This document shows, piece by piece, positions 1-29,338 of a stretch of DNA of 64,000 nucleotides. The stretch's first letter is position 1, and every line of letters starts with the position of its first letter. Both the position numbers and the translations under genes were made by a program. Below the pieces are notes generated by a model that did no database searches, had not been told where the DNA came from, and saw nothing but the letters and a program-made list of their open reading frames with translations. Origin of the DNA: Amoebophrya sp. A120 (taxonomy: Eukaryota; Protista; Dinoflagellata); contig CAJINV010000003.1 of the NCBI GenBank assembly GCA_905178155.1, positions 4,307,835 to 4,371,834 on the forward strand, given 5' to 3'.

Positions 1-1142
1 GCTGGTGGGATCGATCTTGCTCCAGGAAAACGGTAGGTTCTCCTTGCGCTCCTCCACCAATTTCGACGAACAGGCGGTGACGCCCTCGATCCCGTGCATG
101 GAAACAAACATGCGCAGCTTTTTCGGCAGGGCGGCGCACACCTGTCCGAGCTGCTCGCGGGAGAAGGAGAAGTTGTATACGAGCGTGGCATCGTCCATTT
201 TCGCTTTGGTAAAGTCCTTCTTCCGGAAATCGATCTTGCGCACGTTGTCGGGCGATCCGGTGAGCGACCGAATCTGCTCCGGGGACAGTTTCCCGCACTG
301 CTCCGGGAGGGACTCCTGCGTCTTCCGAAACAGAGAGGAGAACCCCTTCGTATCCTTTTTGTTGATCTGGTTCACCTCCTGCACCTTCGTCAGCGAGTTT
401 CTCAACAGAAACAGCTTCGCGTTCTGCGCGGCGTCGTACCGCGTCGGCTCGAATTCGATCCCGATGGCCCGCTTCACCGGCGTCGTCAGCGCGGTCTGCA
501 CGACGGCTTTACCGAGCCCGCTTCCGAGGTCGTAGAAAACGTCATTGGCCGTCACGTCCATGCGCCAGAGGATCTGCGCCAACGAGTCGGAAAGCACTTC
601 CCCGTACAACGGGCTGCCCCCCACTGCCTTCAGCGCCGCCTGCTCCTTCTCCGGCACGTAAAATCCCGAGGGCAGACTCCCGTAAACAGTGTTCACCAGG
701 TCGCCTGCGCAGGCGCTCAACTGCCGAAAGCCTTGCTCAGCCTTCGCGATCACATCAGCACGACGCTGCAGGGGCACCATGTTGCGTCGCACAAACGAGG
801 CGCCCCGCACATCTTGTATGAATTGCAAAAATGTCTGGGTCTGGAAGAGTGCAGGAGTTTGCCATGCATATTTTGCATGCCCCGTGAGGTCTGTGATGCA
901 TGCCCTGGCATCAGAGATTTTGCGAGGGCTTTCTGATGCTCATACCGCATGAGAAATGCCCTCTCCGCGTAGCACAAACTACGCGTCTTTTGCTGTTCAT
1001 GCAATACAGATTTTATGTAGAGTCCAAAGGTAGCATCACAAGTTGCATCCTTCCAGACCCAGACACTTTTGCATTTGATATCTTGATGAAGGAAGCAAAC
1101 CTGGTGCAGCAGGAGAACCAGAAACCGCGGCACACCGTACAT
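1..1142 (-). CDS. DOT1-like SAM-dependent methyltransferase, paralogue 1, with signal-peptide-like N-terminus; interrupted by an introner and truncated by the window start
   Basis: Exon 1 (MYGVPRFLVLLLHQVCFLHQD) joins in frame to VRGASFVRRNM...GGSPLYGEV...DVFYDLGSGLGK...AIGIEF once 817-1080 plus one TCTTG copy is removed. YGE, motif I (DLGSG) and GIE match the DOT1 family. No stop codon before position 1. Confidence 0.85.
817..1080. mobile_element. Introner/MITE family A, copy 1 (264 bp)
   Basis: 31-bp TIR: left TATGAATTGCAAAAATGTCTGGGTCTGGAAG, right reverse complement TATCAAATGCAAAAGTGTCTGGGTCTGGAAG (28/31 identical). 5-bp direct repeat TCTTG at 812-816 and 1081-1085. Confidence 0.93.
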
Positions 1143-1966
1143 GGCAGTAGTTTTGCACTAACGTATTTCTCAGTGTCGTGGTAGTCGTGTGAGCAGGATT
1201 TAATGCTAGTACTGCTGCAGCTTCGGCTGTATGCAAAAAAACCGTAGCTACAAGATTCAAAAATTTGTTATGTTGAAAGCAGAAATCGCGAAGAAGCACA
1301 CTTCTTACGCCAGGTTGGTGGAATCGGTCCGTGAAATCGTTATCGTATTTTGCTTACTAGTGCCTCTCAACTTGTATGGTGCACCTCTTCTCCGTGTTCT
1401 CGATCTTGGGCCGCGTCATGAGGTCGCTCAAATGAATCCAGGTAGATGCAGCGCCGGTATGGATCATCACCATCGTTTGAGATCTTTTCCCACCCTACCG
1501 CAGGCGGATGGAGTAACACATCTTCGGTGAGATTGATACACCTCACGTCATAGCGCCATTCTCGTAGGAGCTGCAAGTTGTCACTGTCTCCTGCTACCTT
1601 CTTCTCATGCGTCATCTTGGGAGAGCCATCTACTACATTGCGAAACGTATGTCCTGCTCTGATTCAGCTTTACTTCATCTTGGTTTCATCTTTTTATCCT
1701 TATACATTCAGCCAAAAAACGCAAGAAACTGTATCTGGTTGCTTTCCTGGTTCATTCTTTTCTTTTGGAAACGTCTGTCTGAGTCATCGCCAAGCTACTA
1801 GTCGTCTTGAACAACGAGAATTGCGCCCGAATCCGGTCACCGTTACATGATCATGGAGTTTCTGATGTTTGGCTGTGAGGACGCCGCGAGCCCGGCGCCG
1901 CTGCACTATGAGAATCGCCTTTGCGTTCGCTTCTCCTCCGGCTTTGCACCCAGTTCTTCTACTCGT

Positions 1967-2758
1967 TCACGCATGCGGCTGGTAGAAGTAGATCGAACTT
2001 CCACCGGATTTTCGGCTCCACGACATGGGTAACTGCATGACGTGCGCTTTCCAGAACTTTCGGGTACAATTTTCCACGTCCCCGAGATCCTTGAGAACCA
2101 CAAACATGCGCACCTTTTTTTGTGGAAGCAAATCGCAGATCTTTCCCAGCAATTCCGTAGAGAAACAGGTTGCGCATGAGTAGGCGATGGTGGCATCGTC
2201 GAGGGTCGCCTTCGCGAAGTCCTTCTGCTCAAACTCGATCACCCTATCGGCCGCCGCCGGCGTTCCCAGCACTGCCTTGCGTGCTTGGAGCGCCGTTTTG
2301 TGTCTTGTCGCTTCGAATTCGATACCGACTGCTTTCTTCACGGGTGTGGTGAGCGCGGTTTGAAGCACCGTCTTCCCGATTCCCGACCCGAGATCGTAGA
2401 AGACATCGTCTCTCGTGGGCTTCACGTACTCCAGAACTTTCGCCAACGACTCCGGTAGAATTTCCCCGTAAATCGGCGAACCCCCTACCGCCTCCAGTGC
2501 CTTTTGCTCTTGTGCCGGGATGTTAAATCCCGGATTCAAGTCCTCGTACGTCTTGGTCAACAACGTTGATGCTTCATCCGTGTCGAAAACGCCCCCGGGG
2601 GCTCTTTTTGCGGCCTCGGTCTTCAACTTGCTCTTACCTTGGCCCAGCATCAACTTGTGCCGCAAAACGTTTGCGCATTCGACGACACAAAAATGCGGGG
2701 TGAGCAGCACTGCCAAGCCGGCGAAACGCCAGGCAGCAGAACTATACGCGACAAGCAT
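1967..2758 (-). CDS. DOT1-like SAM-dependent methyltransferase, paralogue 2, intronless, signal-peptide-like N-terminus
   Basis: 263-aa ORF containing GGSPIYGEI, DVFYDLGSGIGK, AVGIEF and IAYSCATCFS. Hydrophobic N-terminus (WRFAGLAVLLTPHFCVVECA). Clearly paralogous to the gene at 1-1142. Confidence 0.88.
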   Translation of the reverse strand: MLVAYSSAAWRFAGLAVLLTPHFCVVECANVLRHKLMLGQGKSKLKTEAAKRAPGGVFDTDEASTLLTKTYEDLNPGFNIPAQEQKALEAVGGSPIYGEILPESLAKVLEYVKPTRDDVFYDLGSGIGKTVLQTALTTPVKKAVGIEFEATRHKTALQARKAVLGTPAAADRVIEFEQKDFAKATLDDATIAYSCATCFSTELLGKICDLLPQKKVRMFVVLKDLGDVENCTRKFWKAHVMQLPMSWSRKSGGSSIYFYQPHA

Positions 2759-3251
2759 ATTTTCACACTACCATGCTCCGGCGTTAGCGGTGCTGTTCAG
2801 GGTGGGATGATTTAAGTAGAAGGTGAAAAAGAAAAGCTACAGTGCAGTCCGTCATGTGAAAACCTCCTATCGAAACCATGTCGCGCACACTCTTCACCAA
2901 CTCTCAGAATTCTTCCCTTCCAAGAAACATGCTTCCATAAACGTAGCCTCACATCAACATACATAGGACACTCTGACTCTAGGGGTTTCTGCTCGTTGTT
3001 CCACCTTTTGGACAATCTGGTCCCTGTGACGGCGCGCCAACACGCTATGGCTAATATCCCATTCCCATATAGGCCGCTTAAGCACATAGCAAGAGACAGC
3101 CTGTGCATTTCAGTTGTAGCCGTAGCTGCCGATAGATCTTGATCCTGGTAGGTACGCGTTTGCTTTGTTGAGTAGTAGACTAAAAGAATTTCTGAATGCG
3201 AACCGAGTCTGGGACTGCAGCCCAAGGGAAAATTGTAACCGCGACTGTTCA

Positions 3252-6200
3252 TCACACACTGTCGAAGACTTCCCAGAACTCGTCAGACTCCTGCTTTTCC
3301 ACTTCCACCCCGGCGATCCGAACCTGACTGCGCACGAGCTCCTGGCTCTGCAAGAAGTCTTCTGCAAACTTCCCCGAGTTTGCCTTTGCCTTGTCATCTG
3401 GATGAGCTAAGGCGCCGACCCACAGGAAGATCGTCGGCTCCCCGTCCGAATCGGGTGCAAAGAACAATTGCACGAATTCGCTGTCGAGGTCGTCCGGATC
3501 GGGCATGCTCATCGGATCGTCCCAATTTGGGCACCTGGAATGGGACGTTGCTTCACGTAAGTACTAGTACAGGAGGTTTTGCACTGTTGCTTGTACATCT
3601 AGATTGATCCTAGTCCTGGTCCTGCTACTTTTACACGCAAACAGAAAAAACAGGTACGTGAAAAGCTGCGGTTTGATTTTCAATTTTGTCTTCGATGACG
3701 TAACAACTTCGGTGTTCAACGGGGGCGTCCTTGGCGAGGTCATCGGTGTCCGCGGCGTCTCATTTTTGGCTCCAAACGTCTTGACCAGCAGCTCGTAGTC
3801 GTCATCGTTACTCCGTATTGATTGCACCTGCAAATTTCTTGGTCACCGATTCACCGGAAGTAGATGTTGTTCACGTAGTTGTCAAAGTAAAAGAACTCGT
3901 CCTGATTCACATTTGAATCTTTTCGCCCTACAAGTTCCAGAAAAAATACGAAACAGGACCCGAAATTCCAATACCTGCCCTGAGCCTTTGTTTTCGCTCC
4001 GCAGAATGCCCCAAAAGGCCTCGGACGGGTTCGGGTCTCGGCAGTAATCGATGACGGGTCTTTCGTTGGGTGGCAGCCACCGCCTTCGGCAGTCGCTGAC
4101 CTGCAACAGGAGTTTCTCGGCTTCCTGCTCCGGAACCACGGACTCGGGCCCACGCCACACCAAGAACTTGTTCCGCTTGCTGTCAAAGCACGCGTAATCG
4201 AAGCGCGGGTCGATCCACAACGAGGGCACATTGCGGTATTCGACCGCGAACAGAACCAGAAACGGGTCCCGGTCGTGGTGACACCTGATCTTGCAAAGCT
4301 TCGGATCGGCTACTACCTGTATAAATTTAAGTAACGTTGGAGATCGTCCTCGGGACTTAGAGGTTTTCTATTCTTTTTTGTACTCGTGTGGATTTGCTTG
4401 AACGGCGAGGACCTGCATCAGCATCGACTCTGTGACTTATGGGGGTCATACATTGCAAAATTAGTACCGCTTCCCCAGGTTTTTCTGAGTTGGGGTTCGG
4501 AATCCCCAGTTCCTTCTGCCAGAGCAGAAGCTGGACGTAGAAGCCGGTATTGGGGCGGCAAATGGGGCGCGTTTGCTGAATGCGCGAGAGGACCTCCCCG
4601 ACGGGCTTCTTGGTCAGGTGCATCAGGTACACCAAACACAGAGTGCAACTTCGGCTCACACCTTGGCCGCAGTGGAACAAGATGCGCGGCTTTTTCCGGG
4701 TCGTTTCCGCTATCCTGTGCAAAAGTATCGTACTCGTATGGCAATCATGCATCAATTTTTTTCTTAAGGAAAATCCGCATTACAAATTTTATCTCTCATG
4801 CTGACGAAATTTGTAGTGCATTTATACGAATACGCTACTTTTGCAGTTCATATCCGCGGCCTGCACGCAAAACTCCAGCAGCTTGAAGAATCCACTGGAG
4901 ATATCCTCCGCGCGGCCGTCCTTGAAGTAAAAGGTGAGGTACTCGAAGTGCCGCGACGGGGCTTTCTGAGCTGTAGTAAGAGCAGGATAGAAGTCTTTCT
5001 ATTCCTACCACATTTTTCAGTTCCACCGAAAGCAACTACACTTGAAGTCGAAATGCTTGCGGATTCAAAAAAAAAAACGAAATCTATGTTTGTATTCAAG
5101 AAGTACGCGAGTCGTCGTCCGAGTCCTCCAAGTTGTCAGTTACTTCGGCGGCGGCGTTGACGATGTGTGTGATCCCCTGATTCAGAAGCTGTGTCTTGTT
5201 TCTCGCGACATCCGAGGCCCCGATATAAACGAAGCTTCCTTTCAACCGCGCCAGCGATGGATCGTCGAGGTCGCAGGGTATCTCGCTCAACTCCGGCCGG
5301 TATTTTTCGAGCATTTTTTGGTTCTCGGCCTCCGCGCCGTACTGCAGCTGCTGTTGTTGGCTCTGTTGCACCACCCGCGGGGTCGGCGGCGTCACGCCCT
5401 CCCCCTCGCCGGTGGCCGCCACCTGCTCGCCGCGTCTTCGTTTCAGCACGCCGGGCGCCCGCTCGGGGGACGCAGCGTCCTCCGCGAGGACCTGGACGTT
5501 GGGCGACTTCATCACGATTTGGGTGGAGTGCTCCACGATCTGCTCGTCCTGTTCGCGTGGACTCACCCGCGACATCACTGCCTGCTTCACCAAGTTCTGA
5601 CGGTAGCGGTCCGCGGGGGAAACCAGCTTCTTCGTCGGGTCCGACGGCGTTTGACCTATAGCAGGTTTGGGAGGGGAAGGGGATGAGATGATATCACAAC
5701 CACAAGCATGCAAACGACTATATGTAGATTGGAATCGCAAGTAAGTGTACTTATGCGGCCCCATGGTGGATAGCTGGTGTACGCATGGTTAAAGCAAAGA
5801 TTTTCAAAAGCTTGCATACCAGCAGCGCCTTTTCCGCGTGCAGAGCGGGGCGTAGCGGTCTGCGGCCGTCCTCTCGCAGAATCTTGTTGATTTGCCCGGC
5901 CTGCAGCAGCAGCGGGTGGTGGCTTGACCGCCCCTGCATGGAACGATTGCGCCCGCGGAGTGGTGAACACACCGAGCCCTGGCTGCAGTGGCAGGCGAGG
6001 AGTGGCCAGCGGGGTCGCTTGCAGCACTGCGCTCATAGGGAAGGACTGCGGTCTCGGCATGGGAATGCTGAAGCGACCGCCCAGACCGAGCACTGGGGGC
6101 CGTCCCACGCTTTTGTCTGGACTTGTCGCCCCGCCCGACGTCCCCAACAATGGTATCTGTGTCACCTGCGTCGCGCCAGTAAATTTTGGCAGTGCCTGCG

Positions 6201-9200
6201 GTCGCGAAAACGGTCCGTCGAGACCCGAGGGCTTGGCCGTCGAGGCGGCCGGCCTTGCGACGTTGGTTTGCTTCGCGCTTGTGGGCAGCAGCGCAGGCAC
6301 GCAGAGTTCTCCATAACTACCCGGAAGCGACAAACGGGGAGTCTGCTGCAACACGCGCCTCGCGGGCGAAAAAATCGCCGAAGACCCGGTCGAGCCGCCA
6401 CTCTGGAAATTCATGACGCGCGGCACTGGTGCGGTAGTACCGGCTGCCGGCTTTGCTGGGTAGTTCCTGGTCGTGCTACTGCTCGAAGGTGCCTTCTGCT
6501 GCATTTGGGAACTTCTGTTTCCCATGATCGTAGTGGCATCGTCGTAGTTACTTGCATCCTGTGACCGCCCGGGACGACCCGAGTTCGCTGTTGCCCAGGA
6601 GCTTGCGGCGGCTGCGGCACGGTTCCAGGTGTCTGCCGAAGTCCCGTCGCGAAATGAAGTTGCTCTGGGCAGAAGAGAACCGAGTTCAAATCGCGGCGTT
6701 GTGACGTAGCCGAAATTATCTGTGGATAAACGAGAATTCTTCATCAACGATCACCCGCACAACGGGTTGGTGCTGCCACAAGTGTTTTATTTTTGTTCAG
6801 TGTGGTATTGTCATCTACATTGGAGGTGCAGGTGGTTCAGGTGAAAGAAAAAAGAAAAACTAGAATTACAACAAAAAATTGTACTTCTGCCACTCTGCTG
6901 AACATCGTTCATGACGGAGAACGCAGTCTCAAGACGCGTTGGAACCGCAGAGGGCCCGGCATCTACGGGGACCGCCACATCTAGAACAAGATTCCGCCGC
7001 AGCGGACCAATTGATCTCTGGTGCGCCAGTTTCCGGTGCAGAACGTTCACTTGCCGCAGCGCCTTGTGGAAGACTTCATTCTTCACGCGATCGCCCTTAA
7101 CTCGGAAAAAAGTGACCATGACATCGCTACGAATCTGCCGGCCGGAGTCTGGCGGCGGCGAGGTTCCCCGGGGGCTTTGCAAAACCTTCTCCATGTTTTG
7201 CACCTTGGGCACCAACACGTGTACGGGAAAACCCGCCCCCTCCGGGGTCTTGAAGGGTGCGTCGCCAACCCCCGATATCGGCTTTCTCGTCGGAGCTTGC
7301 ACTGCGCGCGGCGACGTGGGTGCCGTGAAATTCCACAAATCGCGGCAAATCGGCGACACGTCAAAACCGGGTGGGAGCTCAATACGCGTCACCACGGAGC
7401 TCTCCATGTACGACCGCACTTTTCCGAACACTACCTAGAGACGATGTATAGAGACGAAATAGGTGATCTTCAGCACTGTTCTTATCCCTAAAGAAATTCG
7501 CAGCATACCGTCGGGATTTGCCCTTTTTCTTGCGCCAACGCAGGCGCTGCAGCTTTTATGGTCGCGCCTGCGTAGGAGTGGTGTTGCCTCCCCTGGTGGG
7601 TTTTTGCACGCGGCCCAGGCGTCGCTCTAGAGAAACCAACAGGCTGGCACGCTAGCACCCCGGCGAGCCTAGACATAGACTAAAGAGGCCCCCCCACTGC
7701 GCAGATCGACGCGCCCCGCGGGCACTCACAACACACCCATCCGGCGCAGGCGGGCATCTTTTCCGCGGCCCCGAGCCCGACGTACTCGCGACCCAAAAAA
7801 GGCCGCAAGCCGGCTCGTGCGGACTTGGTGCGCAGGCCCCTCGAGTCCTCTTGGAACTCTTCAAGCGCGCCCCCATCTCTCACCCGCCGCCCCAATCACT
7901 CACCGTTGGCACCGGACCGCTTTCGCGGCCGTGGTGGACGCACTGGCAGAAGACCCAAAAAGCTTCCCGCCTGGTATTCGTTTAAACGCTCCAAAAAGAT
8001 AGATAAGAACACCTACTGCAACGACCTGGCATTTGGCATTGATGTTTTGGCACGAAGCAGAGTTGGAGCTTCTGCGCCAGATGTTCCCGGTCTCGTTTTC
8101 TGCTGTTCTTATCCTCCACGCCATGCATAGATAAGAGCATGTTTGTAACGACCTGAAGCTGGTGTTTGGCACGAAGCAGAATTGAAGCTTCTGCGCCAAA
8201 TGTTCCCGCTCTCGAAAAATGCTGTTCTTATCCTCCATTTGGTGCATAGATAAGAACATGTTTGTAACGACCTGAAAATGGTGTTCTTATCTATGCACGG
8301 AGAGGAGGGATAAGAACAGCATTTTATAGAGAACGGGAACATCTGGAGGAGAAGCTTCAATTCTGATTCGTCCAATCACCCTACTGCAGGTTGGAAGCTG
8401 GAGAGCGACACGACTGTGGTGGTCAACGAGAAACTCCGAGGAGGCTACTACGTCCAACTCTGATTCATCCCAAAACACAGCAACAGGTCGCTGCAGTAGT
8501 GTTCTTATCTATGCACGAGCGGGAACGTGCGGAGCTGAAGCACCATCTTTGCTTCTAGTCCCTCCCATATGCGTATTATTTTATAGAGCCAGCGCCCCAT
8601 CGGTCCTAATTTAGGACCGACGGCACGGCGCAGGCAACAAAGACAACACCGGAGGGGCCATCATCTGCTATGGAGCTCTCCATGTACGACCGCACTTTTC
8701 CGAACACTACCTAGTAGAGACGATGAAAGTGGCACCAGATTGATTCGACACACTGAACATTTTGTGTGAGATTAGGCTGGGGCTACACATTGACATACAG
8801 TAGACATCATATCATTCTCTTCACGTCGTCCCTTTCTATAACTTTCATGTACATTTTTGTGATGAACGTTTCCAAGCCACAATCGCATACCTCCATGATC
8901 ACGTAGCATTCGTCTCGGCGAAGGTCTTCAGGATTGAATTCGAACTGCTGCTTCGCGTCGAGTATCAGATGTAAAAATGTCTGGGTCTGGAAGAATGCAA
9001 GATTTGTGATGCAGGTTTTCCATGACCCATGAGGTCTGGAATGCGAGACCCAGCATGACAGATTCTTGGAGGTCTCTATCATGCCTTTCCTGCATGAGAA
9101 ACTCCCTCTCAACTTGGTCAAACGCGGACAGCTTTTGGCACTCACGCAACACAGATTTTTGCATCATTTAGATTTAGCATGACAAGTTCTAATCTTCCAG

Positions 9201-9394
9201 ATCCAGACATTTTTGCAATCCATATCGAGGCACGAAACCCCTGCAGCGGCCGGCTGCTCGCCGTCCCGCCACCGCCACATCCGATACGCGGCGCACTCCT
9301 GCCATGACGTTGTGGAGTTGCCGGGGTTGTCGATGCTGCGTGCAAACTCCTCGAAGGACTGAGGGTCCTTCTCGAACGCGCACGCGTTCCCCAT
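3252..9394 (-). CDS. Multi-exon dual-specificity protein phosphatase (MKP-like) with possible gelsolin-like flanking segments and an MGNAC acylation-like start
   Basis: DSP motifs across exons: VYIGA..GITHIVNAA (~5160-5240), FEYLTFYFKDGRAEDI (4860-4950), ILFHCGQGVSRS and RPICRPNTGF (4540-4690). In-frame GT-AG introns can be traced, e.g. 6884-6720, ~5819-5657, ~5107-4970 and ~8891-7435. Two introners at 4711-4852 and 8963-9224. Joining the 6811-9394 part to the phosphatase is inferred from phase-compatible splice sites only. Confidence 0.72.
4711..4852. mobile_element. Introner/MITE family B (142 bp) inside the phosphatase domain
   Basis: TIR: left TATCCTGTGCAAAAGTATCGTACTCGTAT, right reverse complement TATGAACTGCAAAAGTAGCGTATTCGTAT. 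5-bp direct repeat TCCGC at 4706-4710 and 4853-4857. Removing 147 nt gives ...FCVQAA-ETTRKKPRILFHCGQG in frame. Confidence 0.88.
7447..8671. mobile_element. ~1.2-kb insertion with an internal fold-back, flanked by a ~50-bp direct duplication
   Basis: GGAGCTCTCCATGTACGACCGCACTTTTCCGAACACTACCTAG(TAG)AGACGATG occurs at 7396-7446 and 8672-8725. The interior has a GC-rich part, repeated TGTTCTTATC/GATAAGAACA motifs and a hairpin at 8600-8620. Confidence 0.6.
8000..8517. repeat. Imperfect ~520-bp palindrome built from ~120-bp units
   Basis: Two direct units at ~8000-8127 and ~8128-8247 (AGATAAGA.CA...CAGA.TTG.AGCTTCTGCGCCA.ATGTTCCCG...TGTTCTTATCCTCCA) are mirrored by reverse-complement copies at ~8283-8380 and ~8450-8517. 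Centre near 8266. Confidence 0.8.
8963..9224. mobile_element. Introner/MITE family A, copy 2 (262 bp)
   Basis: TIR: left TATCAGATGTAAAAATGTCTGGGTCTGGAAG, right reverse complement TATGGATTGCAAAAATGTCTGGATCTGGAAG. TSD TCGAG at 8958-8962 and 9225-9229. Removal joins ...GVSCL to DAKQQFEF in frame. Confidence 0.93.
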
Positions 9395-12980: not shown

Positions 12981-13818
12981 TCAGCGGCGGCGGGAGTCCG
13001 ACTTGGAGCGGGAGCGGTCGCGCTTGGAGCCCGCCCGGTCCTCCTTCTTGGAACCACGGTCGCGGTCTCCACCGCGGCTGCGGGAGCGGGAGCGATCACC
13101 GCCCCGGGGGCGGGAATCCGCCCGGGCTTGGAAGCGACCGCCCTGGCCCTTCGGCTTGCCGCACCGCATGCACTCCTGGCGCGCGGCGAAGTTCATGAAG
13201 TCGCAGCTGTCGCAGATCCAGTCCCCCGGCTTCATGCTCTGCTTCCCCTTGCCCTTGCCCTTGGGGGAACGGCTGCGGGAATCGCGGCGGCCACGCCCGC
13301 GCCCACGGGAGTCGTTGCGCCCGCGGCGGCGGGAGTCACCCCGTTTGCCCCGGCCCTTCGCGCGCTCGCGTGCGTCATGGTCCCCGGTTCCGCCAGTCAC
13401 CATCAGGGCGCGCTCCTTCCCGTTCCGGGCACGCTCGTCCTCCACGACCTCCATTTCAACCTGATGTGTAAAGATGAAGTGGATTGATGCTCTTGGACCA
13501 GATAAGAGATGTTCCCGCCGCTGGCTTCTAGTTGCTTTTGAGCGCGGGTGACATGCACGATGAATCTTGTATGTAGAAGATGTAGTAGTACATCAAACAT
13601 ATCTTCAGTGACATCAAGCAAATTTACAACATGCGACGTACTACGCAACAAATAGTACTACGTACCTTGTCATTTTCCATCAACGGACGGCCCTCCACAT
13701 CGACGGAGTGAACGAAGACGTCGATTCCCGCCTTTCTCCCCTTGGTCACCTCGATGAAGCCATAACCCTTCTCCAGGTTGAACCACTTCACGACGCCCGG
13801 CACGCGTTCTCCGCCCAT
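12981..13818 (-). CDS. Cold-shock domain + RanBP2-type zinc finger + RS/RG-rich protein, paralogue 1
   Basis: Exon 13818-13666 has [15 protein letters not shown] and DVFVH (RNP1/RNP2). GT-AG intron 13665-13461. Exon 13460-12981 has [22 protein letters not shown] and RS dipeptides. Confidence 0.92.
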
Positions 13819-15374
13819 GTTGTGATAAATTTATCTGTTCTTCAACGAGTACGTCCTTAAAAATGCTGGTCCTCCTTGCTTCCCCGATCAGGAAACGGTG
13901 AGATAGAATCAAATCGAAATAGAATTCCGAACAGCCTGTGATGTTTGTTGAAAAAGTCTCCGAGCGAGTAGTTGCGGTGGTTTCGCCCGAGGGAATCCGA
14001 AAGTCAAGTATTCCTACGCACCCGCCGAAATAAAGTAGAGCTGGACGGGGGAAATGTGCGCTTGTTGTAGCTCAGGTTCAACCACAACTAACTGGAATCA
14101 CGGTAAAAGTTGTCCCACAGCACCTCCAAGGGATGATAGATCCTGTAGTGCCCGCACGTTGTGCTACCGGAACGGCAACGGCTATAGTATAGTAAATTTC
14201 GTCGTGCGTGCAGGGGAATTGATAAGAGGCATTTTGCTTGAGGAGCCCACGCTGCACCGTTCCAATTTATGGCAATGTCGGGACAACCTGCGGGTACGCA
14301 CGCCGAGCCTCTACCACCTTCTGCGCTCGCAACACTGACAAGATCTCCGCCTTTCACAATTTTGAAGAACCCCGTTCGAGAATTTCGTTTCCGAGCAGCG
14401 CTGATCTTGATTCGCATTTGCATTTCGCACGTAGACATCTGCGCGAGAACGAGCATCGGCCCTTCGTCTAGCAGCTATCGACGTTAAAACTAGGACCCTG
14501 TCTTACGAAATCGATTTTAGGGCGTCTCTATGATCTCCGACCCGTCCCGACCTTTTTGTGACAAACTCGTAGGACATAGCGACAAACAAACCTGTATCTG
14601 CTCGAGTCTACCCCTACGTATCTTCTTCCTCGATATCATGATGAACAGGTGGACATTGTAGATATTACCTCTCATGCAAGTAGCTACCCCCCTTTGTACC
14701 ACTGCGAGCGGTGTTTGCGTTTGCATATTTCCAGTCTGTCTTCCTGTTCGACAACGACATTGACAGTTAGTGCATGAGATAAAACAGTGAATTCGGCGCG
14801 CAATGGACGATTGTGATAATCTCGATAAACAAATGTTGTGGTGCATTGGTGCCAATCCAAAGCCCCCGCTCCGATCGGGACGTTACGAGAACCATGGACT
14901 GCCACTGCTCCCGGTACGTAGCTCCAAAAAAAAATAGCTTGGTTCCACATCCACGTGAACGATCGAAAACGCGAAAGCAACTAGCCCCTTTTTTATGCAT
15001 GTTAAACCTCTGGTTGAAGTTGGATTTTTTGCTAAACCTCCTCGTTGTGACTTCGTGGTGGAGATGAGATGGCTTTTGATCGTGCGAGCGCCTTCAAGAG
15101 TAAATCAAACCTGATGTCCTCCTGGTCGACACCTGTTGTATGATATCAATGTTTTTTTGTTCTAGAGCAAGATCATTTCCTTTTCCATTGAAGATGGAAG
15201 TAACGAAAAACTAAACCCGAAGTGGTGTCAATCTATGCATCCGATCACAAATCTAACCCTTCACCTTGCGCAAAATCAAAAAATCGCGTTGTATGAATGT
15301 TGCTACCATGATTTTTTCGTTTTCCAATCTCCGTTTCCGAAATCTGTTTCGGTCCTTCTTCACTGCCCGGGCCT

Positions 15375-16245
15375 CTAGCGGCGGCGGGAGTCAGCACGAC
15401 CACGGGACTTCTCCTTGTCGCCCCCACGGGACTCCTTGTCGCCCCCACGGGACCTGGATCGGGAGCGGGACTTCTCCTTGCGGCGCTGGTCGGGAGAACG
15501 GCTGCGGGAGCGGGAGTCACGGCGCTTGCCACCCGGGACGCGACCACCCGGGGCCTTGACTGCGCCGCACTTGAGGCACTCCTTTCGGGACGCAAAATTC
15601 ATGAAGCTGCACTTGTCGCATTCCCAGTCACCCGGCTTGACGGACGTCTTTCCCTTGCCCTTGCGCGGGGAATCGCGGCGACGGCGGGAGTCACGGCGAC
15701 CACGGGAGTCGCGGCGACCACGCGAGTCTCGGCGGCCGCGGCCCTTTCCGTCTCCCTTCGCGCGCTCACGGGCATCGTAGTCTCCAGTGCCCCCAGTCAC
15801 GTTGGCGGCACGATCCTTGCTGGACGTCCGGTCGTCGTCCGCAATGTTGAACTCGACCTGCAGTTGGTGTTGCTTTAATTCTCTTTCCGAAAAATAACAG
15901 GAGGCTCAGACAAAACTGAAACAGCAAATTCAAACTTTAATTTTTCACACACAGTAAGTGAAGAAAATAAGTACTCCAAAGCCAATCAGGAGGCCAAATC
16001 GATCCTAAAGTCTTGATGCTACCTATGCGTCGCGATCGCGAACAAACAAGACAACTGAAAAATAATTCTGGCGAAGGCAAGAAAGTGCGTACCTTGTCGT
16101 TCTCCATCAGCGGGCGTCCCTTGATGTCGGATGCGTGAACGAAGACGTCCGTTCCCTTGTCCTTGCCGTTGGTGATTTCGATAAATCCGAACCCCTTCAC
16201 GAGGTCGAACCACTTTACGGTTCCCGTCAACATGTCTCCGCCCAT
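15375..16245 (-). CDS. Cold-shock domain + RanBP2-type zinc finger + RS-rich protein, paralogue 2
   Basis: Exon 16245-16093 has [15 protein letters not shown] and DVFVH. Intron 16092-15858 is at the same position as in paralogue 1. Exon 15857-15375 has [22 protein letters not shown] and RRDSRG repeats. Confidence 0.92.
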
Positions 16246-18518
16246 GGTTGATGCTTTTTGATCGACTTTTACGGCTTACGGTTCTTACGTCACCCAGTAG
16301 AGTAACGAGGAATGTTTTGCGAAAGGGCAAACGAGAAAACTGTGATAGCTGGCTGCGATTGGATAACCACTGGAAGATTTCGCCCGGCAGGTACACCTCT
16401 ACGATTCCAAAAAGTTTCCTGTCAACGTTTTTTGCAATGCCACAAGAATAGAAGGGACTGCGGTTCCGCTGCGGCGAAGAGAGGTCTCCGACCACTGCCG
16501 AACCAAAGGTGTTGCCGAAGCTAGGTAGTGTGTGTGGACTCCGTAGTGCTGTGTTCGCTAGGAAATGTAGTGGAGGACTCTTGGTAACGGTATCGGTACG
16601 TAGGTAGATAGAAAAACACGCGCCTTCGAGGACGTATCGCCGGTGCAATTGCCTGACCGGTCGCAATCGCCCCGCCCGCGCTTCGCGTCTGTCTACGATG
16701 TAGTACACTAGTGCAACTTCTACGACCCTCCGTCACGTAGTGCTTCCTTGTGCTCGCAGTTAAAATTCTTGATCCTCACCGAAACGTGTTCGCGTGCGCT
16801 GGCTACCAACAGCGGATAAAAATTTCATGATCCGCCCCTTTTCAGGGTAACTTCGCCAGGGCTCCCCTGTCACTCGCTGAAAAACTCCCAGCTGTCAAGA
16901 GCGCTGCGAAAAGGAACAGGAAGCGGGCACAGGCATCATCATCCCGTCCCGGCTTCTATTTCTCTGGGCCTTCATCGACAACGAGAATTGCGAGTCCCGA
17001 GCCTTGCAGTGCCTCGCGTATTCCTCTGTGGCTTTGCGATCGGAAGTTTTGTCGCACGACCCGCGCCACATTGAGCTGTTCTTGCAACTACGGCCACGAT
17101 CGGAAATCTCTCTCCATGTCTTTCCCCCCTATTACACCACCAGCCGGCAAGTTGCGCTAGCCAACGTGTTGATCATCGTGCCAAACGTCTATCTGTGCCC
17201 GTTGAAAAACAACGAACTTCCCTAGCACAGAACCCGACGCCGCGGCCGATCACCTTCATTGCGGCGAACAGCTGCTGGATCGCTCAAAGCCGTCCTGTGT
17301 TTGTTCGCGGAAGAAAAAGGCGACGTGAGGGCCTATTTGTTTGGGCGCGGCGTTATTTTCATCAGATATCGTGCCCAGATTGATGGACAAAAGAGAACTA
17401 CCTGATCCAAGTAAGTGTGGGCGTTGGATGGGCTTAGCGGCAACGCGTGGCTGCGGGGGGCTTTTCGCGCATTTTCGCGATCCTTGCCGCGGTGCGCAAA
17501 TGCGCGGCGCCGACGCGGTCGCAAATGATTCATACAAGAAATAAATCAACAGCGATCATTGCGATGGGCTCTGCAGTCGTGCTAGGTAGCGTGTTTACCT
17601 CCCCAGGATCAGCTACTGCGCGCTAGTGCGCCAAGCCCTCTATGTTTCCATACTGCAGTCGTGAACGTTAAGCATAAGCGATGTGTTACATTAGATAACG
17701 GATCCCATTTTCAAACATGCGTTGGGTAGTGTACTTACGTGTATTTCGATCGGGTCGATGTCGGTTTGCGAACGCGAAGCCGCATGAAAAATTTGCTCCA
17801 GAGAGAGCGTGAATAGCCGTATCCTCTGAAAAAGTGTTCCGTCTGATGTTACTGCAAAGATCTCTGCTGAGCGGCACTCGTCAGTAGAAGTACTAACTTG
17901 TTTAGTTCGTAGAAACTAGAAAGGTGATCTCAATTTATGCTCACTTGGATTTTTGACTCTGCTATTTTGCTTTTGGGTGCAGGGGGAAATGAACTCATTT
18001 TTACTTTGATCGTCTCAAAAGTCAGACCTCCTCCAGTGCATTTAGCATTTTTGCGGTTTCTTTTGGTTTCTGTAATTGGATCTTCGGCGACTCAGTTTCG
18101 TTTTCCTTCAGATGAAAAGATCTCGACTGCTGATACATCAATATTCAGTCCGTCCGCTTTTGAGTTGCCTGCTCAAGATTGAACGTCGACCATCAATAGG
18201 CACTACTTCTGCGTGGCGAATCAAACACATAAAGACAGAACTGACTTACAACAAGTGCTGGCACACAAGTACTTAGAACAAGAGGTCAAGCATTTTTCCT
18301 CATATACTATATCACCATGTCTCACTTCAGGAGCTCGAGTTCCGTCACACAAGAAGTGAAAGACGTCATATTCCGAGTCGCTCGTCCGTGAAGTTCGTGT
18401 TATTCTTTCGGAACTACACTGAGCAAATCCTTTTGCCTTTTTTGATTCATTGTGCGAGCGCGAGGACGACTTCAACATCTACATCCTGCAACTAAAAGCC
18501 TCAAAAATATGTCTGTTA

Positions 18519-21554: not shown

Positions 21555-21986
21555 TTCTTTTGTATATTTATGTGCAGGAGCGCCACGCCGGTTCACTCGT
21601 TACTAGTCCTCATCTACAGGTGCTTTGTCAGGAGTAGGATCTTCGTACGCAGAGCAACCGCCTTTCTCAGACACGATTGCTCACATGCTTACTTGTTTCT
21701 GCTCGCCATAACCTTACTTTCTCTGCTCCACACCGCGAACCACATTGACTCGCCACCCACGTTATTTTCCATCGCTAGAATTAAAATTACTTACATGGTT
21801 TGGTACTCCCGGATCGACTCTATAGCCTCGTTGGAACGGCGACACGCGAGAGTGCAGGTGACAGAAAAAAATAGAAAAGCAAAAGCAACACTGCAGCGCC
21901 TTCCTGTGGAACTCCGTGATGCACTGGCGTCAAGCAAGGGAATCAATCGAAGCCGTCTACGTAAGTAGATCGACCTATATAGGTTT

Positions 21987-24030
21987 CTATCTTTTTACTT
22001 CGCGAAACCCGCGGTAAAAGCGTTCGTGGTTCGTTCGTATTCTCTCAAGGACGGCCACTTTGTCCTCCTCTTTTTCAACAAGCAGGAAGTGTTCTATCTG
22101 GCCCCGACAGGCCTCCAAAGTCCACAAATAGGGCCCCATATGCTGAAAATTTTGTTCCCGCAGCTCGTCCTGATAATCGACGAAGCGGCCCCAGTCTGCC
22201 GCCGTCCAGTTCGCTAGCCGTTCCGGGCCGGGAAGCGCGAAGCAGGACCGTTCCGCGCCGTCCTCAATGAGCATGGCCGCCAGTGTGCGACCCGGGTTCC
22301 GCGGGCAAGGTACCGCGAAATCGTGCACGCGGCAGGGCTGTTCGTTGCCTGTTTGCAACTCCTGCAACTCCAAATAGTCCGTGCCGGTGTTGCGAAACGC
22401 GCCCATCCAAGGGTGGATCACGAAATCCTCGCGGTCGGTGATCTTCGAAAAGTCGTGCACGTTCCCCAGCGGCATCATCCCGCCCTTCTGCCCCTCGCCC
22501 AAGTCCAGCGCCTGCCGGTTCTCGTCCCCGAAGATCATGGTCTTCACGTCGACCTGAATGTCGCTCCAGTCGCCCACCTGGGCGGCGCGACTTCGGAAGG
22601 TACGGTGTCCGTACGCGATGTTGCGATCCGTGTCTCGAATGTAGCTGTTGATGTCTATCAGCAGCGTCGCGGGTTGCTTTCGGATGCAGTACAGCAGATC
22701 CTTTCGAAAGTACTCCACGGGGAGTGGCTTAATTCTATCATCCTCTGTCATTTCCCGGTGACCGCCAGCCGCCTCGATCTCCGCGTTGGTCTTCCCTTTG
22801 TGGTAAAAGTCGTGTACCTCCTGCGCGGCCTGGACACCCTCATGAGGCTGCACCGTTGTTTTCACGAAGCACTTGACATCCGGGGACCACTTCTCCAAAA
22901 CGAGAGTCAGTGTTTTTTGCAAGTAGCTCCACTCCTGTTCGTCTTTCACGCCGATCACAATTCCACATTGCTTGGAAAAATCATGCTGTGAGGACGGCCA
23001 CAATCTGATTCTTTCTGGACGACTACTAGAGCTAGTCCAGTTCAACATCACATGCAACAGACGATCACGCCGGCCCCACATCTACTGCGAGCCGCACAGC
23101 ATAATATCGCGAATCATTTTTTTCTGTCGATAAATCAATGTCGTTTTCCAGGAAATCTGGGTGATTTCTCAGTTCCCGCGCGCCCGCGGCGCCGTACCGC
23201 ATCAACGCGATGAGCGTGCCGCGGATGGGAAACCAATCGAGCTTCATTTCGTTCGTGAAAATGTCCGCGATCTCCTTGAAACTGCTGTGATAGTAGGCCG
23301 TGAAATCCTCATCGCTCAGCCCCTTTTGCTTGTCCACGTCCGTTCCCAGATGGTCCGCGTACGCGTCCTTCCCCGCCTGTATGTCCTCTGCGAACCACTG
23401 CCGGTACTTGTCCGCCCGCTCCCACCCGGACACGATGTTCCAGCCCTCGACGAGCCGGAGTAACCCGTCGTACGTGACGTCGCTAGACAGCTCGTGGTAC
23501 AGCGCGGTGAACTCCGCGACGATCTCCGCCGACTTCTTCAGCCGTTTCTGCTGCACTGCGATCTCGCTGTACGCGTCGGTGTACGTGACCGCCATGGTGT
23601 TTTCCAGCTCCAGCACGAGGGTCTGCAACGCGATCAAGGGGCACACGTCCACGATCACCTGCCGAAACTGCATCAGCGTCCCGCTCAGCCCGCCCACGTA
23701 CAGCTCGGCGCCCGAGTTGTAGAAGTCGTCGTAGTGCTTCTTGATGTGCTGGTACGTCATAAACATGTCCCCATTCTGAATACCCCCGCGCTCGCACGCG
23801 TTCCTCACCTTCTCCTCGGAAAACTTACCGGTGTGCTCGTCGCGCCCGGTCTCGGTTTCGATCAGCTCCCCGGGGTAGTCCGTCGGAAACCGGCTCACCG
23901 CCTCAAACTGGTCCGGCACAAGCGCGTCGCGATCACTCTGGGCTCGCGCTTTATCACTTGCGCTGGTGCTGAGAAAAAAAAAACGAACCAGGAGAAGAAG
24001 TAACGACTTGATGACAGCGAAAACCAACAT
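21987..24030 (-). CDS. Putative secreted protein of unknown function (~640 aa, two exons)
   Basis: ORFs 23065-24081 and 21987-23081 both show strong GC3 bias and can be joined in frame by a ~110-135-nt intron near 22982-23103. Hydrophobic start MLVFAVIKSLLLLLVRFFFLSTSAS. Confidence 0.65.
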
Positions 24031-24408
24031 CTTGTGAAAGCGAGATTTGGAGGCGTTGTGGAATATTGCGACGAGCCACACCGGTCTTCTTGCACTGGCA
24101 GTTCAATGCTACCGATCGCCTCCTTCAGATGATTGCGACTATTTGACCTTCGAATTACGCATGTCTGGCACGAGCCTTACGTCGGTACCCACAGCGGAAC
24201 AAATAAAAAAGAACCGGAGCATGTCGTCCACCAGCATCACCATTTTCAAAATCAAATTACTCAACATTTTTTCGCTATGAAACTTGGGAACGTCGCTGTG
24301 TGCTTTTGTATTTCAGAACTATATTCAACGAACCTCACGCGGAGCGGGTGCGGGAGCGGAGGCCGGGGACAAGACTATTCACCACAAAAAAACGTAAAGA
24401 AGTAGTCA

Positions 24409-25230
24409 TCATTCGTCCCAGAACTGAAACCGCCCCCAGTCGAAGGTGGGCTTTTTCTTTGTTTTCTTGACTATCCAATGATGCGGCGTCTTGTTGATCA
24501 CAAACGGCTCTGGCGGTGGTGGCGGCGGGGGTAGTTTGGTATCACCGAGCGCTGCTACCACTTCGTTGTTCCTGAAATCAATCCTACCGCGGACGGGAAC
24601 CGGCATTTCAGCGGGCCAGCCTACGTGGATGTTCTCGAAAAAAAAGTTGTCGGGCTTCTCGTCGTTACCCGTTGGCTTGTCAGGAATGCTAGCTGTTGTA
24701 GTTTTGCGCCCTTACGTAGCGAGCTGGTTTATCAACGACCTCCTGCGAGGCGAGGCCGAGGCGAGCGAGCGCATACAATCAACAACCTCCTGCGACTCAG
24801 AATGTCTATAGGTCAATCATCTGCGTACGCTAAGAAGCAAAACTGCACTGCACACACTTTACCTTTCATCTTCTCTGACGCACAGTGGAGAAATGGACCG
24901 CATTGCTTGATAAAAGGAGCCTCCGAGCCGAGATCCTTTCCGAGATCCTTTAAATGTGGAGTGTCGACCGTCGACCACAAGTCCGGATTATCCCCTGCGG
25001 AATCCTCCTCCAACTTTTTGTGCAGATCGTCTACGTGGTGCTGGTGTTTCGCGCACTCGAGCTCCTTTATCTTATCTTCGCACCAATGGACCCGCGCCCA
25101 CTCTTTGTCGATCGTCTCGCTGTCGTCCTTCCCCCTTTGTGTCAGAATGTCCTCCGGAGGCGTATGGTCTCCCGCTGGTCCGTTGAAGTTACCTTTAACC
25201 TTATACAAAAAGTCGTAGATCGGTGTCTTG
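24409..25230 (-). CDS. Hypothetical protein, multi-exon, start unresolved
   Basis: Protein-like exons YDFLYKVKGNFNGPAGD...CASEKMK and ...ENIHVGWPAEMPVPVRGRIDF...FQFWDE*. Junctions not resolved. Confidence 0.45.
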
Positions 25231-25952
25231 ACGGCTGCGAAACTCGTCGTGGTACCATGACGCAGTCGTATTGTCCATGCAGGCGCCGAGGGGATCTCAC
25301 TTCTTCTCTGCAAAAATTTTTGGCTGCAGCTGCTTGGAAGTTGTAAGGCATCAAACTGTGCCTCCACGGCATTCGAGACAGCACTTTCGTAGTGCTGATT
25401 AAAATCCAAGGAGCGCAACATCATTTTCGCTTCGCATCCAAGCGCTAGTATGTCGAGTCTGAGATGCTGGCTCACTTCGTTCCCATTACATCGGAGTCGT
25501 ATGCAGGCGGTAGTTCTGTAAAACTATCAATCTCTCTGCCTTTGATTGACACACTGACTCTAGTTCGATCTCGTCCTTGAGGACAAAACATATACTCTGG
25601 AATCACCAGCCCGGTGGAGATGCATTCGATTCTTCACATCATCGAGAACAATTTTGCAGAAGCAAGGCCTTCTGGATGACGACCGCGAAATCGAAACTAC
25701 GACACCCACACGACAAAGTGGCGAATCACGACTTACGATTTGAAGATATTGCTTTGCTATACAAAACTCACGGGCGAGGGATTCTGTGACGGGCACCAGA
25801 GCAACGCAGCGACATGTCGGACCGCTACAACTCTTCAGATCGAAGTTTCTCTGCGCACACTTAGTTCTGTGAATGTCAAAGGGTAAAAACCAAGCATGAG
25901 CTGCGTTGTGATTTCACCGTCCTGTTCGTTCTTGTTGCGCAATGTAATTTCA

Positions 25953-28900
25953 TTATCCCTCATCCATACGATCCTCATCATCAACATCCTCAACGCAATA
26001 ATCTTCTTCGTCGTCTTCGAGATCCAATGTTAAGATTCTCTTGGATCCCCGGTCGTATAGAGTACAAACGCCACGAGCGAAAGACAGCGTCACTTCGAGA
26101 TTTTTACTGCCAGACCGATCGTTGTACTCCGGCGGCAATATGCGGCAGCGAAGCCCAGTTTCCTCAGGATTTTTTTGCATCTCCTCGTCGAGGTAGTAGG
26201 ATTCAGTATTGCTGGCAGCATTAGGCCTGTCGTCCTCCATCATAATTGGCTGCACTTTTCCACCGATAACGCGATGTGTGCCGGGTGCGCAGCAGTCTTG
26301 TGCGCCAGCTAATTCCAATTGTTCCAAGGGAATCAGGACCGCTACACACGTCGACGTCTCAGCAGTACTGTACAAGACCAGCAGCTGCTTCGAGGAGTAA
26401 AACTTCGCGGCGACGAACCGGGGCGCGGACGTCTTGTTTTTAAACATTACTCGCTTCCACCGATCCCGCTTCCTTGGTGGCATTTCACCGGACAAAGATC
26501 CTCCTTGATAGCCTGGAATCTTGCCGTCGCAGCCGTGGCAAGGCTGGATTTCCGCAGCACCAAGTCGGACTCGATCTTCAGACATCAAGACCTGCACAAA
26601 GGCATTCCCATCTTCTGCCCAGGCACTGTCAACAACACGACCAGTCGTGGTGCTTGTACAGGCGCCCGATGAATCGTGAATCCTGTTGCTGGCGATCCGT
26701 AGCGCAACCTCCTCTACCTCCACGGAATGCGCTGCGCATACGCTGGAGGCAGTTTCTGTAAGACACTCTTCGAACTCTTCCAGCAAACTCCAGAAGGTGC
26801 TAACCTCGATGACTTTCTCACTGCCGCTCATCTTACTGGACTGCGACACGTGATTCGCTTGCTCCCCCCTCCAACAAGTACTAGTCGTGAAGGCCGGATC
26901 GCGAATCCGCGATACCCGCACTGCGCTCGCGTCGCGTGCTCCAGACAGCTCTCTCGTGGGTGCCTCTGAGGACAATAGTGCTGTGACGACGTCAAGGGAC
27001 TGGGCGAAATCCTTATTCAGCATGACTGCCTCGACATGCGCTACCGGGGCGCACACTGGGGGAGGTGACTCGCCAGTGATTTTCCGCAGCACGTAGAACA
27101 AGCTCAACACGTAGATTTGGCACCGGTAGAGGGAAATGCCGAGGGCCTCACATGTCTCGGCAAGCAAGTGCGCTTTCTGTGCCGCCGTGCCTTTTTCCTC
27201 GGATTGTTCCTCTCCAAGCTGACAATTGGAAGACGAAATTGCCACCTCCGCAACGCCACGGGACGCTAGCAACAGATGGCGTGCGGCGGGCTCCATGCGT
27301 GTAGCGAGCTATCAAATGTAAAAGTGTCTGGGTCTGGAAGAATGCAGATTTTTGTCATGCTGCTTTTGCATGACACAAAATGTCTGTCATGGAAGCCCTA
27401 GCACCATAGGTTTCGAGAAGCTTCCGCTTTGCTTAATCCGCATGACAAATCCCCCATTTTCGTGAAAGGTAATGGGCGCCTTTTGCTGCCTATGCATGAG
27501 AGATTTGTCTGTGTTGTGAAATGCGCATCACAAGTTCGCATCCTTCCAGACCCAGACATTTTTACAGTTGATACGAGCAGCGTTTGCACGTATTCGATTG
27601 CGTTCAGCATCTGCTTTTCCATCCGATGGAGGTTGGGCAGGTAGATGTCAGAAACCCGACCGGTGTACATCGCATGCAACAAGTTCTCCTCGCGGGTCGC
27701 CTCGCTACTTTCAGTCCCGTCTGGAGATTCTCGGTCCTCGTCCTCGTCGCCGCCGAAGTGGGCCCGCAGGTGCTCATCAACCGAGGACGCGAGTTTGGAC
27801 TCAAGCGTTTTGCGCGCGCCAGAAAAGTGCCGCAGCATTTGCTCGCAGAAGGTTCGCATGGCGGTGAGCACACCACAGCAATGTTGACGACAAACGATGT
27901 TGCGCAAAATGATCGCCCGACGCGCAGGAGGCGCTAGCACTTTCCGAAGATCCAACAACCTGGTGTCGGAAGGTCCAGCGGTGGATGGCCTTGATGGCCT
28001 TTCGATCGTGATAAACTTTCCGTTGCAGTACATCGTCGTGCTGGCCGCGGAGATTTCGTCGTCTTGAAAACCAACGCTAGAGGTCGGGTTTGAAGACGAT
28101 TTGCAGCTCAGCTCAAGTACGCACAGCAAAGCCGCAGCGTTTTCCGAACCATGAAAGCGCATACCACTATCCACAGTGGGACTTAGGGGAGAGGGCGCGG
28201 CTGCATCCGGCCCTGCGCCTGCGGCAAGCGAGCATATCGACGCGACATGCTCGTTTAGCACAAAGCCGGCAATTTTCCCCGTCGCCGAAGTGACAAACAG
28301 GATATCTAGGGGCGGTAACTCGTCCGGTAGCACGCATTCTGGATGCACGGTCAGCGGTTGTGATGTCGCTCCAACTTGTTGGGGCACCGCGAAAATCGGA
28401 GGCAGTGTGGAGAGTTGAGCCAAGTAGCTACCAGAGAGTCCGATCGCTCCGTTGCCATGATTTCGGACTCCTGCGGAAGATTCATCCTGCACTGAGGTAG
28501 ATGACAAGAGGCTCTCCGGGTGCGCACCGTTCGACAGAAGGACCTTCCCCAGCTCATCCTGGAACATTGGCGATGTTAGAGAAGCACTGATGCCTTGGCT
28601 CTCCAGCAGGGGACACCAGCCCTCCGGCGTTGAGGAAGCTCCCAAACGGCGAAACAGTGAATGCAAGATTTTGGTTCGGCTTTCACAACTGGATGCAGAA
28701 GCAGATTCCGGACCGGTACTAAAATCTTGGCCTGTATTGATGTGATCATTCACGTGCGAAGTGCAACTACCGTGTCGAGTGTCGCTTCCCCCTCCTGGTC
28801 GATGCCAACATAATGCAGCTAGAGTGTCGTCGCTGGAGTTATTTCCTGCGCTTGAGTTTTTGCCTTGTTTTTTCGTACCTTTTTCGAACACGTTCGTGAA

Positions 28901-29338
28901 CTTGAAGAACATGCGCTCGGTAGCGATGTCGAAGACCGTGATGACAGATCGCCGACCTACTGCGAGAAACCGCCCGCAAGGCGACCACGCGGCCACGGTC
29001 CGCGACGCAGGCGCATGCGTTGCAGTAGATCTAGCGGCCGCACTCGAAGAAGAAGAAGAAGATGAGCTGCTAGAAGATGAGCTGCCAGAACAACTGGAGC
29101 TACTTGTGTGAAAAACTTTTCCGACTTTTTCTCCTGCATCTTCGGAGTTTTCAGCAGGAAGCGTTTCCGCGGGGGAAACCGCGGCCGCAAACACCAAATC
29201 ATTCTCGTCTTCTGCCAGGGGACGCAAGACCGCCAGCACATCCCCATCCACGACAGCCAGGAGGTCCTGCACGGGGTTCCACGCCACGCAGCGGACGTCG
29301 GCAGCAAGCTTCTCGCTCACCAGACGGAAACTACTCAT
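25953..29338 (-). CDS. APC4: Anaphase-promoting complex subunit 4-like protein, interrupted by an introner
   Basis: N-terminal WD40-like motifs (VAWNPVQDLLAVV, AWSPCGRFLAVG), a helical middle region and a C-terminal RGVCTL...LTLDLEDDEE. ORFs 27398-29338 and 25953-27296 join (VQTLL-ATRMEP) on removing 27310-27573 plus one TSD copy. Confidence 0.75.
27310..27573. mobile_element. Introner/MITE family A, copy 3 (264 bp)
   Basis: TIR: left TATCAAATGTAAAAGTGTCTGGGTCTGGAAG, right reverse complement TATCAACTGTAAAAATGTCTGGGTCTGGAAG (29/31 identical). TSD CGAGC at 27305-27309 and 27574-27578. Confidence 0.93.

Follow-up and report, generated by a model that had tools for sequence, protein, structure and literature searches.

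The genome of the marine parasitic dinoflagellate Amoebophrya sp. A120 has been reported to contain 29,850 introners, whose inverted repeats (IRs) start with TAT, seven looser bases and then at least three A, with direct repeats (DRs) of 3–5 nucleotides (nt) at their borders (Farhat 2021, PMC7789003). In that report their non-canonical removal is supported by RNA, genes mix both intron types, the legend of Fig. S19 names direct repeats of 5 bp and places IRs at the ends, and a hairpin is proposed for a mechanism that is called unknown; U1 small nuclear RNA was not detected in the strain (PMC7789003). Here we analyze five such elements, four inside genes and one between genes, in a 64-kb stretch of the A120 genome on contig CAJINV010000003.1 (the whole stretch is called the window below). 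Judged by their sequence features, the window elements are the published A120 introners, so that the class is already known and the finding is a rediscovery. What the analysis adds are constraints on the removal mechanism: a free target sequence, both orientations, a canonical site that is ignored, and a bias in codon phase. In the data at hand, the genic elements are real, transcribed and exactly removed.

Several other described systems resemble these elements in part. A survey of A120 families with terminal inverted repeats (TIRs) gives sizes of about 107, 148, 209, 252–260, 278 and 317 nt, mostly with non-canonical sites (Gozashti 2025, PMC12130899), and these sizes match the window copies, a comparison made by description and not by sequence. 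Family 38 of that survey is annotated ‘Ginger; 5-bp TSD, TA/TA Termini’ (TSD, target-site duplication) and is about 810 nt long with remnants of an integrase-like open reading frame, whereas the window copies carry none (PMC12130899). The IS3EU/GingerRoot transposons have TA…TA termini as the window elements do, yet their TSD is usually 6 bp (PMC10045372), a length found in none of the 328 TIR pairs described below. In animals, SOS splicing is triggered by TIR pairing and needs AKAP17A, CAAP1 and RTCB; as with the window elements, a DNA transposon is lost from the mRNA through non-GU-AG sites that lie within or close to its inverted terminal repeats, but several cut sites are used and indels result, while the contig joints at the window elements are footprint-free (Zhao et al. 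2025, PMC12779559). Only exact joints were seen for the window elements, in contigs that drop rare variants, and SOS splicing may be regarded as their closest mechanistic analogue. The non-conventional introns of euglenids, whose machinery is described as unknown, are likewise MITE-like (MITE, miniature inverted-repeat transposable element), with paired ends, TSD-like junction repeats and GT-AG introns alongside, but the Euglena signature 5'-N3CDG…CH'GN5-6|R was seen by eye in none of the four genic window elements when the intron is started at TAT (PMC11282704, PMC12501133). Canonical splicing has been reported in another Amoebophrya (PMC12005148). We found no literature linking Amoebophrya to RtcB or to SOS splicing, and the main text of the SOS paper names neither Amoebophrya nor introners (PMC12779559).

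The match to the published A120 class is exact, since the strain, the published end motif and the 5-bp repeat all fit; a prior sequence-only reading of this DNA had already stated that the class was reported in Amoebophrya. The window elements lie in the A120 genome and combine TAT-N7-AAA ends, a direct repeat, non-GT-AG removal and membership in a repeated family without transposase, and we see no difference in kind from the introners as described in PMC7789003. The described dimensions differ: IRs of 8–20 nt and DRs of 3–5 nt in that report, compared with an imperfect TIR of about 30–45 nt and a TSD of uniformly 5 nt in the window. A search of the main and supplement text of that report found nothing on element orientation or codon phase, which its figures may show. 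The free TSD sequence, the chance-level occurrence of GT…AG and the presence of both orientations among coding copies, all detailed below, appear from sequence comparison to be new observations. The elements and their host genes are as follows.

817..1080, no strand assigned: element 1, 264 nt, ~260-nt family, TSD TCTTG at 812-816 and 1081-1085
4711..4852, no strand assigned: element 2, 142 nt, ~145-nt family, TSD TCCGC at 4706-4710 and 4853-4857
8963..9224, no strand assigned: element 3, 262 nt, ~260-nt family, TSD TCGAG at 8958-8962 and 9225-9229
27310..27573, no strand assigned: element 4, 264 nt, ~260-nt family, TSD CGAGC at 27305-27309 and 27574-27578
31614..31819, no strand assigned: element 5, 206 nt, ~206-nt family, TSD ATTAT, between the PRP3-like and NSRP1-like genes
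37..1142, minus strand: DOT1-like methyltransferase gene, host of element 1 (Pfam DOT1, E 9.9e-15)
3252..9394, minus strand: dual-specificity phosphatase gene (A120 GSA120T00002328001), host of elements 2 and 3 (Pfam DSPc, E 1e-19)
7435-8890, 6720-6884, 5656-5819, 4971-5106, 4317-4467, 3828-3974 and 3535-3657: the seven GT-AG introns of the phosphatase gene
25953..29386, minus strand: likely APC4 gene (A120 GSA120T00002337001), host of element 4

Evidence for removal comes from contigs of four RNA-like sequencing runs (X3–X6), which behave as spliced RNA because the ordinary intron 32286-32484 of the PRP3-like gene is skipped in all four. At element 1, a single X3 contig (record 9, 2002 nt, depth 148) joins 810 to 1080 and skips 269 nt, equivalent to the element plus one TSD. 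The corresponding joint at element 4, from 27304 to 27574 with 269 nt skipped, is present in three of the four runs; in the remaining one the contig ends at 27219, short of the joint. Around element 2, a 3077-nt X3 contig (record 11) lacks 704 nt of the genomic sequence that separates two of its listed pieces, a deficit equal to the five introns that the A120 protein P0001 implies there (136+147+151+147+123), of which element 2 contributes 147. For element 3 the evidence is one-sided: a piece of X3 record 12 stops at the TSD (9225), and the record continues. The element plus one TSD is therefore absent from spliced-RNA contigs, directly for elements 1 and 4, by length for element 2 and on one side for element 3. 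No contig of the four runs spans element 5; the flanking contigs, among those listed, end at 31165-31558 and begin at 31997-32080. Public protein models agree with the contigs. P0001 is identical (100%) to the phosphatase exon and reads through elements 2 and 3 with the element and one TSD gone from each, which places both in one gene, and P0003, another A120 protein identical (100%) to the APC4-like exon, reads through the site of element 4 in the same form.

Reads of the raw-read RNA runs X9 and X10 (217 and 2) match element ends alone, without covering the host genes. At window positions 9140-9227, 192 RNA reads of X9 carry the last ~90 nt of a relative of element 3, with foreign sequence on the inner side, and may stem from an element, longer or nested, that is transcribed at another locus.

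In the genome, the coordinates, TAT and ATA ends and four TSDs that the sequence-only reading had listed for elements 1 to 4 were confirmed, and its TIRs of about 30 bp correspond to 27, 23, 24 and 28 matches over the first 30 nt of elements 1, 2, 3 and 4, respectively. An exact 5-bp direct repeat flanks all five window elements, and the inverted-repeat start TAT-N7-AAA is found at all 10 of their ends; read on the sense strand, the four genic elements start with TATCAA, TATGAA, TATGGA and TATCAA. A scan of the window for TAT…ATA spans with an exact 5-bp repeat and at least 19 of 30 TIR matches returned 5 elements, compared with 0 in each of 200 block shuffles. Elements 1, 3 and 4 form one ~260-nt family (67–75% identity over the compared stretches) and all three share one orientation, while elements 2 and 5 belong to separate families, yet the TAT-N7-AAA ends are common to all. 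Element 5, which had escaped the sequence-only reading, is intergenic, and relatives in the second assembly described below reach 97% identity to it. The elements, at 142–264 nt, have no internal transposase. The summed depth of the element family in a DNA-like run (X1) is 1e5–3.6e5 compared with ~45, a value that gives no copy number. All four genic elements fold strongly (z = -5.0 to -9.0), as any element with TIRs would.

After deletion of 269, 147, 267 and 269 nt (element plus one TSD), the minus-strand frame is open in all four cases, as had been claimed. Element 1 lies at about codon 20 of the first DOT1-like gene, element 2 within the dual-specificity phosphatase domain, 12 codons ahead of HCGQGVSRS and thus where the sequence-only reading had put it, element 3 in the phosphatase gene's first coding exon, and in the APC4-like frame no interruption was seen other than element 4. 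Two of the host assignments made in that reading hold, the DOT1-like gene by Pfam and the phosphatase, hit twice, by Pfam and P0001. The third is likely APC4: the ANAPC4_WD40 match of its protein reaches 19.9 bits, under the 22.9 cut-off, the top match in Atlas is 0.95 with low recognition, a PDB search returned nothing useful, and the public model of GSA120T00002337001 begins 158 codons later than the window frame.

None of the four genic elements offers a GT…AG pair in any of the 6–7 equivalent placements of the deletion, in agreement with the sequence-only reading, although the ordinary introns of the host genes keep GTA…CAG-type ends. That reading had allowed only its ‘copy 3’ an in-frame GT-AG alternative, which proved incorrect, as such alternatives exist within ±30 nt of all four elements, each including one that adds a codon. 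The closest is at the copy starting at 27310 and not at 8963, so that ‘copy 3’ perhaps referred to the third member of the 260-nt family. There, at element 4, the donor is shifted by -1 and the acceptor by -4 (GTATCA…TTTGATAG, 266 nt, one added codon), and this in-frame GT…AG is used in none of the three bridging contigs.

To see how general these features are, we used a larger sample. A TIR motif search of metagenome_contigs gave at least 151 stretches, of which 150 loci were analyzed, all with the prefix JACKZZ01; they represent a second assembly that may not be A120, and the best matches of their elements to window copies are 88–97%. The TIR pattern had no matches in viral_contigs and genome_contigs, which are viral and prokaryotic collections. 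In this assembly 253 unique elements were called, under criteria (TA[TC] ends, AAA at one end and a match of 4/5 or better between the TSD copies) that in part impose the conservation at these positions. When 328 TIR pairs were picked regardless of their flanks, 199 had an exact flanking repeat of 5 nt, and other exact lengths were rare (2 nt in 24, 3 nt in 7, 4 nt in 1, 8 nt in 1 and 6 nt in 0). An exact TSD flanks 226 of the 253 elements, with 199 distinct sequences among the 226 and a composition near background; in the other 27 the two TSD copies differ at a single base. As in MITEs, TIRs are thus combined with a TSD of constant length and variable sequence.

We infer from sequence that the JACKZZ01 elements are spliced as well. 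After 51 of the 253 elements were dropped for want of 95 nt of flank, exact deletion left a coding-like open frame in 100 of the 202 testable elements, compared with 9–18 of 202 for shifts of 1–2 nt; the codon model was trained on window genes, and the other 102 elements fell below its coding threshold. A retained element would add a stop in 96 of the 100 coding copies. Two loci, L039 (1755-3297) and L042 (2991-4828), become single frames of ~3.5–3.9 kb only once four elements are removed from each, and in both frames the four face both ways. Strand calls were concordant in 40 of 41 adjacent pairs. The APC4-like exon and an L039 exon found no homologue among longer proteins in a weak, length-limited search.

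In these elements GT…AG occurs at a level that looks like chance. Such a placement is possible in 12 and 11 of the 226 elements on the two strands, compared with an expectation of ~4% per strand by hand calculation, and on the called gene strand, counted for the 86 coding elements with an exact TSD, in 6. The arrangement of spliceosomal introners, in which GT and AG lie within the element or come from the TSD, is accordingly seen in 0 of 4 window elements and in these 6 of 86. Elements also face either way relative to the gene, at 33:40 (p=0.48) in the largest family, 17:18 in the 260-nt subfamily and 5:6 in the 142-nt subfamily, and 4 of 11 pairs of neighboring elements in one called gene have opposite orientations. 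An orientation rule considered from the three same-facing window copies was rejected on the 17:18 count.

We propose that the elements are non-coding, inverted-repeat DNA transposons that may be cut from pre-mRNA by a machine reading a predicted terminal hairpin and not GT-AG, a reading whose chances we rate as even. An integrase-like TIR transposase with a 5-bp staggered cut would have inserted them. In the transcript the TIRs would then pair in either orientation, and a stem of 30–45 bp would juxtapose both TSD copies. At least one cut would be set by distance from the stem end, with the two cuts 5 nt out of register; because the removed piece takes along a TSD copy whose sequence is free, at least one of the cuts must fall in arbitrary host sequence and be placed by distance. 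The signal would be symmetric, as the orientation of the element does not matter. In the last and least supported step, an RNA ligase, perhaps of the RtcB type as in SOS splicing, would join the exons outside U1-guided splicing. The transposase was not found in the 150 loci and the window, and neither was the autonomous partner that the sequence-only reading had suggested looking for. Four distinct elements there reach at least 400 nt with an exact TSD, and the longest span (L070 2991-4021, 1031 nt, matched TIRs, exact TSD GGCGG) holds a 151-aa frame without a Pfam match.

Several observations weigh against this proposal. Among mismatches in the sense-strand TIRs, G·U does not significantly outnumber A·C (104:84, p=0.17; 62:51 in a stricter set), and selection for RNA pairing is not demonstrated because transposition alone explains TIR conservation; nor do the folding z-scores help, since the TIRs account for them. 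TIR positions 4, 5 and 7 are paired in just 40–57 of 100 copies. Insertions are biased in codon phase (57:23:20 among the 100 coding copies, p=3e-6; in the commonest phase the TSD is centered on a codon), the bias persists with symmetric base-preference covariates (p 0.0004–0.003), and a ruler measured from a hairpin leaves it unaccounted for. A spliceosome that reads a symmetric sequence signal would be independent of orientation too, and A120 retains nearly all spliceosomal proteins together with U2, U4, U5 and U6 (PMC7789003). SOS splicing produces indels, unlike the exact joints here (PMC12779559). As for the RNA evidence, X3–X6 are one sample whose RNA label is a tool's guess, the contigs are assembled from complementary DNA (cDNA) and drop rare isoforms, and they may not be independent of the public gene models. 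The sequence-only reading holds with regard to a non-autonomous TIR family that is absent, with one TSD, from spliced-RNA contigs and public models and that lies beside GT-AG introns, while its structure guidance found no support in the G·U test; orientation independence and the free TSD sequence would fit such guidance.

Of the four copies in the window, three have phase 2 and one has the phase commonest in JACKZZ01. Among 16 one-base TSD differences in called coding sequence, 9 are synonymous, and in the commonest phase 8 out of 10; this post hoc comparison gives a weak hint that both TSD copies may reach the mRNA.

The main alternative, along the line of Farhat et al., is a retuned major spliceosome without U1, in which a protein or the hairpin positions both splice sites with reference to the symmetric TAT-N7-AAA ends. 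We consider it a serious contender, though short of an even chance. It draws on the 83 of 89 spliceosomal proteins and the U2, U4, U5 and U6 present in A120 while U1 was not detected (PMC7789003), on a TIR that provides identical end sequences both ways and a pyrimidine-rich 3' arm, and on products as exact as those of spliceosomal introns. It has more difficulty with the cuts themselves, neither of which has a constant dinucleotide in any equivalent placement, and with the good GT…AG adjoining element 4, which is ignored though ordinary introns of the same genes have GTA…CAG-type ends.

It is improbable, in our view, that the joints are ‘falsitrons’, produced when reverse transcriptase switches template between the 5-bp repeats across the hairpin, with the mRNA keeping the element and, for example, ribosomes hopping over it. 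The artefact is described as marked by direct repeats, by strong structure and by the lack of a canonical site (PMC10275267), repeat-mediated skipping would yield exactly the observed joint, all data are cDNA-derived, and the terms ‘template switch’, ‘direct RNA’ and ‘reverse transcri’ are absent from the main text of PMC7789003; for hopping, the 5-bp repeat contains one whole codon in every phase. Nevertheless, the skipped form of element 1 is spanned by a single unbroken contig at depth 148, and retained elements would bring stops into 96 of 100 coding copies, with four elements in some genes (L039, L042). The phosphatase domain also remains 71% identical to its AT5.2 orthologue (P0002).

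Excision from DNA in the expressing life stage, similar to that of internal eliminated sequences, appears very unlikely. The exact loss of an element and one TSD does look like precise DNA excision, but X1 contigs run from unique flanks into elements 1–3 at a single-copy depth of 41–45, and no empty-site joint occurs among the 15 X1 rows listed, with 274 further rows in the joint table. Least credible of all is the use of cryptic nearby GT-AG sites or the death of the host genes: in-frame options do lie within ±30 nt of all four elements and contigs lose minor isoforms, but the joints seen are the exact non-canonical ones, which contradicts cryptic sites for elements 1 and 4, and spliced-RNA contigs cover all three host genes, whose frames are intact after removal.

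Other features were noted in and around the host genes. The DOT1-like gene at 37-1142 has a tandem paralogue at 1970-2758 without an element, which provides no empty-site control because the core that can be aligned lies downstream of the insertion site. At the element-2 site, the AT5.2 orthologue P0002 continues across with one residue fewer, a comparison at the protein level only. The first GT-AG intron of the phosphatase gene contains a repeated segment of 1276 nt (7396-8714) that has internal direct and inverted repeats and a summed DNA depth of 400–1000 compared with 45, and no match to it was found in the 150 JACKZZ01 loci. On both sides of the segment stands the same 43-nt sequence, an exact direct duplication in which the acceptor and the initial codons of the following exon are repeated; this creates a decoy acceptor at 8710, while the gene model uses 7434. 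Elsewhere, diverged coding segments at 12984-13819 and 15375-16246, ~2.4 kb apart and 72–75% identical, are probably tandem paralogues, and the right end of the window (63233-63999) carries tandem repeats with units of ~92–93 nt and 40–47 nt.

Returning to removal by a hairpin-reading machine, the results constrain the mechanism to one whose cut is independent of exon sequence, of GT-AG and of the way the element faces; a usable canonical site is bypassed at the APC4-like copy. They suggest a testable link of A120 introners to SOS splicing. More tentatively, and with clearly less than even confidence, A120 may possess a second, spliceosome-free splicing system acting genome-wide, in which an endonuclease would read the hairpin and cut with a 5-nt stagger mirroring the transposase cut and ligation would leave no footprint, whichever way the element faces and whatever the target sequence. 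If true, A120 would have a precise equivalent of animal SOS splicing, one that renders an entire clan of transposons harmless within coding exons. Footprint-free, sequence-independent removal would explain how transposons turn into introns without splice sites.

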